Origin: Octopus vulgaris
Lineage: Eukaryota
DNA: 64,000 bases
NCBI GenBank assembly: GCA_951406725.2
Contig: OX597816.1
Span: 92,442,001 to 92,506,000 of the forward strand
Reading direction: 5' to 3'
Shown here piece after piece: positions 59,796 through 62,700 of this stretch; position 1 is the stretch's first letter; each line of letters opens with the position of its first letter. Below the pieces are notes generated by a model. The model searched no databases and was not told the origin of the DNA. It was given only the letters and a program-made list of their open reading frames with translations. The position numbers and the translations under genes were made by a program.

Positions 59796-62700
59796 CAGTC
59801 TCCTTGACAGCTTTGGTTCCCTCTTGTTCCCAGAGCACATGTCTTAGCTCTGACAATGCAACCTTCGCACTTGGCTTTGAAATATTGATCGAGGGCCAAT
59901 CTCACTGCCAGCACGTTAGTTACAATGCCTTTCCTAAGCACCTCTTCTAACTTTCTCACTAAATCACTTTCTATTCTATTTCTTTCTATAGCTAAAAATC
60001 TACTAAACCTAACGGATTCTACTTTGATGGCCCTTTTTTAGGTTTTACCACTATTAATTGTCGACGATGGCCCCGTCAAAAATTTCTGAATTAACTCTTT
60101 AATCCGGTCTCTGTAAGCTTAGCACGCCTGGAGTGACGTATTCCGTTTCCAGTAGCCAACTCCTGTGGGTGGAAGTAGTTTGATGGATTCGGTAGCACTG
60201 TCGATACTTTGGGGGCCATTCTCCCTTGGTCTTATTATAGTCTTTGACCGGCCCTCAATCCAATAATCATATATATCATAAACATCATTATCAAGAGCCT
60301 TTACATTGCGCAAGTTATGAATGGGTAAAACACATGGAGGAAGATGCTCAGAGTTTGTCACCAAACGATTAAGGTCACCCTTTTGACTAAACAATAAAAA
60401 AGCTATGGTGGGGAACAAGTTTTATTGTCTTCTCCTAATGATTAATGAGTTGGGCAGGCACAAGTGAAATATATATTGTTATCAGTGGCCACTTGATCAA
60501 ATAAGGCAGGATGAGCCAAGCGCAAACGAGAACAGTTACCATTAACACCTCCATACGGGTTTCAACCAGGCTGACGTGACTCTTGAAAAACCAGGATATC
60601 CATTACAAAATCATCATGGATTTGGTGGATTGTTGTACTGTTGGTTCCATTTAACTTGTGGGTACGTTTAATTGTGTTCTTCTCTAAATCAGTCCAGTAG
60701 ATAAAGTCTTTGAATTGGGAGATGCCACGTGGATATTGTAAATAACTGTCTATGATCACTTGTCTGTTTTAACTTAACATATCTGAAGATTCGATACGTT
60801 TATTATCTAAATCACTCCAATTGACTATTGTCAGCATAGTCTATAGTCAACCCAGCAACGCGACCACGATCAAATATTAAAACCTTTCGATTTTTGCCGT
60901 CTAATGAGGCGCTTTCCACCTTTGGCTTTTCTCCCCAATCTGTCCAGTACGTTATCCTTCAGGTGGATCCAATACTATTGAGCGTGGGTTGGATAGGTCC
61001 TCCCGATGCGGTTTGCCCATTTCCAAATTGGCAAATTCGGGAAATCCAGTCGGTACCTATCAGACAGCTGAGGGTATCTGAGCAAGTTTGCGAGGCTTTT
61101 GCAACTCCCTTTCATATCGGCTAGCCCCACACAATCCAATTGTGCATCTAAGATGGCTTTGAAATCGCCCACTAACACTAAAGGCAGAGAAGTACAGAGG
61201 AAGACCTCCAGACGCTTGAAGAACTCCGGCTGTCCTGCACCTGTCGATGTGTAAATAGCCTCCAGCCTGAAGGCCCCAACGTTACTACCGCTCACGCCCG
61301 GGACCAGCAGCTTACCTTCTGGGTTCAAGAAGACTGACCTTATTTTGAAATCCAGACCTTTCCAAAACAATATCATTGTACCCCACTACTCATTCCCCCG
61401 CCCCCGACACGGAGATGCGTAGATCTCGTAGTCATCGAAAATGGGCATAAATGCTTGCGACTCAGTTCGTCTGGATTCAGTAATGACTATTACATCTATT
61501 CCTCGTGACCTGAGGTCATTGAGTAGGTGACCTTGTTTCCAAGGGTACCCCAGGTCACGTACGTTTATGCAACCTATATTGAGTATGACCATTTGTGTGG
61601 CTGGTAAGGAGAAAAACGGAGAGGACTACTTACCGTTAGCACTCTGGGATGGGAGCGGCGGGGCAGATGTCTCGTTCCTGAAGTGGAGTGTGGTAGTCTA
61701 CAGAGGCTCCAGGACTTTCGTGTTGAAGCCTCCAACCGCCGCCTGTGGAAATTTGGATTTTATGTTGATGTATGTATGTTGCGATGTTCGAGGTATCAGT
61801 ATGTATAGTGGCGGTGTGTTATCCGTGGGGAAAAGAAAGTCAGTCATTTTCATGTCTGTATTTTTCTTTACGCATAATAGTAAGTTTGTGTTCTTTGTGT
61901 TTCTGGCAGTGAGTTTTGTAGTGTTTTTGTTATCTTCGTTTACTTTTTGTGTTGACCCTGTTGTGCCTTCTACTGTTGGCTATGTCTGTGGTGTTTGTAG
62001 TGGTGGTGTTGGTGAAGGTGTTAGAAGCATTATTATTGTATTATTGTTGTTGTTTTCGGGTGATTTTCATTGTTATTTTTTTAGTACTGGTTGTTTATTT
62101 GCTAGTGTATTGTTGTGCATTTTTCTTAGTCCTTGACATGTGACGTCTGTCCACTCAATTCTGTCTCTCCGCACGACATGTCTGAGTGACCAGAGTTGGG
62201 AAAGTGTAGTTCCAGTGGGTCGAAATTTGCTGATGTTCTTTGTTCCTTTGGCAAGAGCTGTGTTGGTGTTTTTGTAGGCGATGTGATGGTGGTGGCTGTG
62301 GTCAGCATCTCTTTGTTGTTGGCGTTGTTTTCTCTCGTGTAGTTGTTGCTGTTGGTGGTGTTTTTGCTGGAGCCCTCTCTGCTTTCATTTCTTGGGATTT
62401 CTTCTGTTTTGGGGGTTGCCTGTGTTGTTGGGGTTGCTTCATTTCTCGTGGTATGGGTGGTGCTTGTATCAAGGGGGTATTGCCCTCTTGTTTTAGTTGT
62501 GGACAGAAGGCTTTCAGGTGGTTATTCAGGTCGCAATGATAACGTCTTGGCCTTCTGCCTTCAACTGTGACGTTCAGCATAGTTCTATCTGGAAGACTGA
62601 GTTGGTCAGGAATTTGTTCGAAGATGTCTTGGTTTATTTGGACCATTATTTGTAATTCCTGACCAGTCCAGTTGTTGTTTCCTTGTTTATCGACTTGGAT

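Follow-up and report, generated by a model that had tools for sequence, protein, structure and literature searches.

A spliced LRP5/6 fragment inside a LINE endonuclease gene of an octopus, probably the trace of break repair by reverse-transcribed mRNA

Introduction

Class 2 TSIPs, as characterized in the accessible text of Onozawa and Aplan (PMC5110952), lack a target-site duplication (TSD) and poly(A), show microdeletion and microhomology, and derive from donors that include spliced cDNAs. Likewise, Cas9 breaks in mouse zygotes took up spliced fragments of Pcnt and Inadl, for which a double-microhomology model was put forward (Ono et al. 2015, PMC4516963, available in part). Double template switches by LINEs, in the portion of Gogvadze et al. 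(2007, PMC2104539) at hand, combine three different RNAs, of which the one at the 5' side is full-length, and the product is bounded by a TSD. Tailless retropseudogenes carry TSDs in the available section of Noll et al. (2015, PMC5322556), and an excerpt of a further report (PMC13534243) describes Drosophila telomeric non-LTR elements that captured 140-235 bp of nxf2, piwi, and aub, the captured pieces being present in the family consensus, amplified, and piRNA-yielding. As a DNA-level parallel, single-copy Pack-TIRs are said in the available part of PMC8277862 to arise mostly by gap filling after transposition. L1 chimeras have been catalogued as well (10.1101/2025.02.02.635956, available in part). 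Out-and-back template switching is a capture route described for LTR elements. In a small literature search, we found no LINE-mRNA-same-LINE case, nothing on templated insertion combined with spliced mRNA, and nothing relevant on octopus retrocopies.

As far as the accessible text of these papers goes, the locus analyzed here is like class 2 TSIPs (PMC5110952) and the products of RT-mediated repair of double-strand breaks (PMC4516963) in that it holds part of a spliced cDNA, cut short on either side and templated by RNA from a distant locus; poly(A) and a TSD are missing, the joints carry microhomology, and the target has a deletion. It differs from those human polymorphisms and CRISPR products, respectively, in being an old event common to close species, and from both in its landing site, a LINE ORF2, and its deletion of 146 bp. 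With the tripartite chimeras of PMC2104539, again judged from part of that paper, it shares three parts in one orientation, a LINE at the 3' side and no tail between; however, the order here is LINE-mRNA-same LINE, and an outer TSD is unreadable. The presence of a host coding fragment within a non-LTR element recalls the Drosophila telomeric captures (PMC13534243, as excerpted), whereas the octopus locus is single-copy, its ORF2 is destroyed, and multiple mobilized copies were not found. Like the tailless retropseudogenes in the available section of PMC5322556, it has no oligo(A), a 3' end internal to the RNA, and complementarity to the target, but it shows a target deletion where those show TSDs. 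The locus is a real and clean, yet ordinary, instance of a known process. It provides a well-resolved natural case in which RNA-derived sequence entered the germline of an invertebrate, leaving neither tail nor target duplication, and for which both the donor gene and, from family copies, the pre-insertion site can be reconstructed.

Results

The LRP5/6 insert and its parent gene

The window, by which we mean the whole 64,000-nucleotide stretch analyzed (G000:C3:92442001-92506000), was compared with the 2.8-Gb genome in 227 contigs. The features of the locus are given in Table 1. A search with the insert returned seven candidates, all of which (7/7) were the window itself and six exons of one parent gene in order, and thus no second processed LRP5/6 copy was found in the assembly. 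The parent exons are located on another chromosome (G000:C11:86927344-86937221), are each 89-96% identical to the insert (approximately 92% overall), are flanked by introns with AG/GT boundaries, bar one damaged acceptor, and form one open frame when joined. The insert comprises the end of one exon, four whole exons, and the start of a sixth, with five introns lost. Since the introns are gone and the exons are joined, the insert is a reverse-transcribed piece of mature mRNA; both of its ends fall inside exons, internal to the mRNA, and poly(A) is absent. The original prediction of about 840 bp of LRP5/6 sequence in the orientation of the LINE agrees with these six exon matches, which the alignment to the corresponding gene, proposed there as a check, has yielded.

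Table 1. Features of the locus within the window (positions are those of the window)
Feature	Position	Strand	Basis or remark
Host LINE 5' UTR and decayed ORF1 region	61600..63680	-	71-85% matches in parts, each of 15 fetched family copies
ORF2 N-terminal part, APE endonuclease to WKWANRI, one in-frame stop	61005..61595	-	tblastn
Left joint	61001..61008	-	three-way comparison of family copies, window, and parent
Spliced LRP5/6 coding sequence (843 bp)	60158..61000	-	genome search and exon alignment
Right joint	60150..60157	-	family copies compared with window and parent
ORF2 beyond the endonuclease (GYWK...), same LINE family	59808..60152	-	RT and 3' end absent
High-copy AT-rich element with inverted arms, MITE-like	59412..59792	.	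adjoins the LINE truncation point

The frame at 60122-60418 has LRP6 as its best match among solved structures (E 9e-22), ahead of LRP4 (E 2e-12), and it is mainly because of this best structure match that the fragment is assigned to LRP5/6, the Wnt co-receptor. The LRP6 chains matched presumably represent the third-fourth propeller fragment. For one parent exon, LRP4 and LRP2, which are larger repeat proteins, gave the top total scores, with LRP6 also matched from end to end.

The insert carries four small indels and premature stops. Both joints shift the frame, making a fusion protein impossible, and an in-frame or selected fusion was ruled out by these shifts together with the indels, the stops, and a divergence of 6% at non-degenerate sites. 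The locus is a dead pseudogene fragment with no evident function. None of the listed runs that contain the stretch was an RNA run, and in two RNA-like runs, the contigs over the insert were those of the parent mRNA only, which is uninformative on expression either way.

The host LINE copy and its family

The host element lies on the minus strand, with its 5' end at approximately 63680 adjoining an (ATT)n tract and followed by ORF1 and then ORF2. The APE frame aligns with residues 3-192 of the homologue P0004, a full-length APE-RT protein (tblastn, E 2e-22), and the right flank picks up near residue 241 of the same homologue. Searched against the genome, the APE part gave 41 matches among the 40 scored of 1893 candidates. 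The copy ends abruptly at 59808, and no RT or 3' part of the LINE was found in the remaining 59.8 kb of the window downstream. A non-autonomous family terminating at this position was ruled out, since other family copies continue into the RT and an (ATT)n tail. Because the 3' half is gone, a TSD around the whole element is unreadable. The loss of this half is one of several post-insertion scars elsewhere in the host copy.

The RT homologues of the family bear PF03372, PF00078, and PF13966 (APE, RT, and zf-RVT), and the best named among them are from Argonauta and Octopus, which points to a likely octopod host. Judged from the homologue domains and the APE alignment, the family has ORF1 and an ORF2 with APE, RT, and a C-terminal zinc finger, the layout of the L1/Tx1 group. 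We take the host LINE to belong to this group, the clade name following from the domain layout. The decayed frames themselves gave no Pfam matches at useful E-values, and a PDB sequence search with the APE half gave no match.

Structure of the joints and the target deletion

The left flank was identified in 29 family copies, and 19 of these have the right flank as well, at a distance of 88-142 nt (exactly 140 nt in 8/19). Both flanks are therefore of one family, and the possibility raised with the original prediction, that they belong to different ones, did not hold. With the joints placed exactly, approximately 146 nt of LINE sequence are missing; in family copies this piece codes for the catalytic end of the endonuclease (SYLDR...TDH), the absence of which had been noted from the letters of the window.

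At the left joint, a 4-nt microhomology is located at 61004-61001 (GGAA in the LINE and the parent, GGGA today), and CATC extends the homology in the 5' direction across a 1-nt bulge, for an overall match of 8/9. Here the APE frame running to PIWKWANRIG gives way to LRP5/6, as predicted. At the right joint, the 5-nt microhomology GGCTA occupies 60157-60153, and TG adds homology on the 3' side past one mismatch (7/8). The return to the LINE that had been placed at about 60167 is real; its position was 10 nt off, the 'GV' of GVGYWK being still derived from the mRNA. At both joints the product carries the LINE version, and the extra imperfect homology is on the side of the kept LINE. The comparison of flanks and family that had been proposed in order to size the deletion and the microhomologies thus gave values of approximately 146 nt and of 4 and 5 nt.

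In 200,000 random joins of LINE and mRNA, an exact overlap of at least 4 nt occurred at a frequency of 0.018 and one of at least 5 nt at 0.006, for a joint chance of approximately 1e-4. Another 4 matching nt beyond a single bulge or mismatch were found in 0.014 (1.4%) of joins. The three parts are joined directly in one orientation. There is no target duplication at the insert, and the target has instead lost approximately 146 bp. The insert also stops in mid-exon, and the original reading of a missing poly(A) tail and TSD was correct. Ordinary 3' transduction is excluded by the internal position, and a canonical retrocopy or processed pseudogene by the absent tail and the target deletion, in line with what had been proposed.

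Distribution and copy number

Among the public runs listed, 20/24 contain part of the stretch and 9 contain at least half of it, under organism labels A-D; one organism A run may be the source of the assembly itself. Contigs bridge the right joint in all four runs (4/4, four organism labels) and the left joint in two of four (two organism labels, at least 31 letters on either side), the other two having too short an overhang in one case and no coverage in the other. An assembly artefact was ruled out by the contigs bridging both joints, and the junctions, which it had been suggested might prove unsupported, stand. The sequences of organisms B, C, and D are within approximately 1% of that of the window. 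These results show that the insertion is fixed in the close relatives, and no empty allele was seen among the joints listed in the runs. In the more distant organism E, the pieces listed over the insert from two DNA runs are exon-sized and at single-copy depth, which hints that this organism is without the processed copy, bearing in mind that contigs cannot show absence and that orthologous and paralogous LINE pieces are inseparable in such data.

In a genome search in which the top candidates were scored, the window alone spanned either joint (1/23 and 1/4 scored matches). Multiple copies, which would have been taken as a sign of mobility, are thus not found, and a mobile chimera was ruled out within this search. 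Present as one decayed copy with a frame shift at each joint, the chimera was never mobile.

Age of the insert and of the host copy

The insert differs from the parent at 32/533 non-degenerate, 23/172 two-fold, and 11/107 four-fold sites, in addition to the four indels, which is the pattern of a neutral copy whose parent is conserved. The insert is equidistant, with 66 differences each, from the parent of its own genome and from the mRNA of organism E (60153-60996; the parent without 23 nt), and from these equal distances it would have arisen near the split between the two.

In the tree, the host LINE is part of a star-like burst and has a terminal branch of 0.083 (GTR+G) or 0.079, compared to 0.073-0.139 for 19 other copies of the subfamily, with six more distant family copies as the outgroup. 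When the joint ends are dropped, the insert differs at 31/521 non-degenerate sites (6.0%; corrected 95% interval 0.042-0.088). The host copy differs from the family majority at 272/2868 (9.5%) or 224/2609 (8.6%) sites, with Fisher p values of 0.009 and 0.044 against the insert, such distances to a majority overstating the age of a copy, and the terminal branch of 0.079-0.083 falls within the interval of the insert. The difference is found at G/C sites alone (insert 13/200 vs. host 139/1118, p 0.016); A/T sites (17/291 vs. 105/1566, p 0.70) and indels (4/829 vs. 12/2719, p 0.78) are equal. On the whole, the dating leans toward an insert younger than its host by a weak age gap, and it does not separate the mechanisms considered below.

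Origin of the insert

We consider it probable that a reverse-transcribed fragment of LRP5/6 mRNA patched a double-strand break in a LINE that had already been inserted. The steps of this path, all of which we infer, would be as follows: a germline double-strand break occurs in the integrated LINE, with the loss of approximately 146 bp; the right-hand DNA end pairs via GGCTA(y)TG with LRP5/6 mRNA or cDNA; a reverse transcriptase copies the six exons from this paired end; and the copy pairs with the left-hand DNA end via CATC-GGAA and is sealed. A target deletion in place of a duplication, the missing tail, and the location of both ends within the mRNA count for break repair, as do the microhomologies of at least 4 and at least 5 nt, given their low joint chance. 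Pairing of each of two genomic ends with the insert should place the extra homology on the side of the kept LINE and preserve the LINE letters there, and both joints are so arranged; the layout at the left joint, read from nine bases of which one has since mutated, favors break repair on this ground. The lower non-degenerate divergence of the insert than of its host may count on the same side, weakly in view of the small age gap, together with the other post-insertion scars of the host copy. Against break repair, the insert has the same sense as the LINE, which this process should yield only half of the time, the ages are equal by A/T sites and indels, and no empty orthologous allele was seen. 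Landing in a LINE requires no special cause in a repeat-rich genome.

A double template switch in target-primed reverse transcription, by which the LINE and the insert arrived together, is the less likely origin, though a serious one. The RT would quit its own RNA at GGCTA, copy 843 nt of LRP5/6 mRNA, and rejoin the same RNA 146 nt toward the 5' side, an out-and-back path. The uniform orientation is what template switching requires, the 3'-side homology of the right joint suits priming by nascent cDNA, the return point is near the leaving point, the host copy is 5' complete, and the indel and A/T-site clocks give equal ages; G/C and CpG sites, by contrast, indicate a younger insert. Double switches by LINEs are documented, but the tripartite chimeras in the available portion of PMC2104539 join three different RNAs with no return to the same LINE, and the TSD that would prove integration in a single step is unreadable here since the 3' half of the element is gone. 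This path also leaves the 5'-side homology of the left joint without explanation: a first-strand switch back to LINE RNA that used this homology should have kept the extra T of the parent, so that either GGAA alone was usable and CATC is a 1-2% coincidence, or the T was kept and later deleted. If true, the out-and-back switch would be a direct route to internal gene capture for non-LTR elements. Variants other than break repair and the double switch are jointly improbable. Among them, a tailless retroposition in which LINE ORF2 worked in trans at a nick, primed inside the RNA, and left a target-site deletion is a break-repair variant begun by an endonuclease instead of by damage; an internal priming site complementary to the target speaks for it, and tailless mRNA retrocopies exist, but those counted in the available section of PMC5322556 have target-site duplications, in contrast to the 146 bp lost here, and we regard it as quite unlikely. 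Gap filling at the DNA level from an LRP5/6 retrocopy elsewhere, since lost, is more improbable still: such filling with microhomology accounts for most single-copy animal Pack-TIRs in the available part of PMC8277862, but the assembly holds no processed copy besides that of the window (7/7 candidates being this copy and the six parent exons). The original prediction named both double template switching and mRNA-templated break repair, and both remain live; its wording of gene capture by a non-LTR element was overstated, as this would make the element the agent of the capture and able to carry the fragment, whereas the chimera exists once, with its frame lost, and has decayed. The anatomy of the joints instead leans toward a cDNA patch in an integrated, dead copy, for which the LINE was merely the landing site.

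Additional observations

One indel of the insert, at 60821-60824, is missing from the contig of organism B and is thus recent. In the parent gene, a splice acceptor and the first 23 nt of one exon are missing at L009:1730-1745 (G000:C11:86933740), where a high-copy fragment, which we take to be CR1-like, is joined directly to the exon via a 2-nt overlap. A search of 20 kb did not recover the 23 nt; they are present in the retrocopy, and an organism A RNA contig crosses the site. Either the missing exon start reflects a deletion allele with loss of function, or the assembly is wrong at this place.

The host LINE family is terminated by an (ATT)n tail, and ATT-rich tracts also adjoin its 5' end in the window (63680-63800) and in approximately six of the eight fetched copies having a 5' match (15 fetched; L074, L076, L077, L079, L082, L084), which suggests that the family may prefer (ATT)n microsatellites as a neighborhood. 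In the copy nearest to that of the window in the tree (L072:3755-3800; G000:C5:90016755), the sequence continues approximately 20 nt past the same left joint and then passes directly into the 3' UTR. Large internal deletions are frequent in the family. The AT-rich element beside the truncation point has arms that are 83-93% identical and many genome matches at 94-96%. Long open RT frames of up to 629 aa occur in younger non-LTR elements at 1466-3710 and 27039-31582 of the window and show later reverse-transcriptase activity in this genome.
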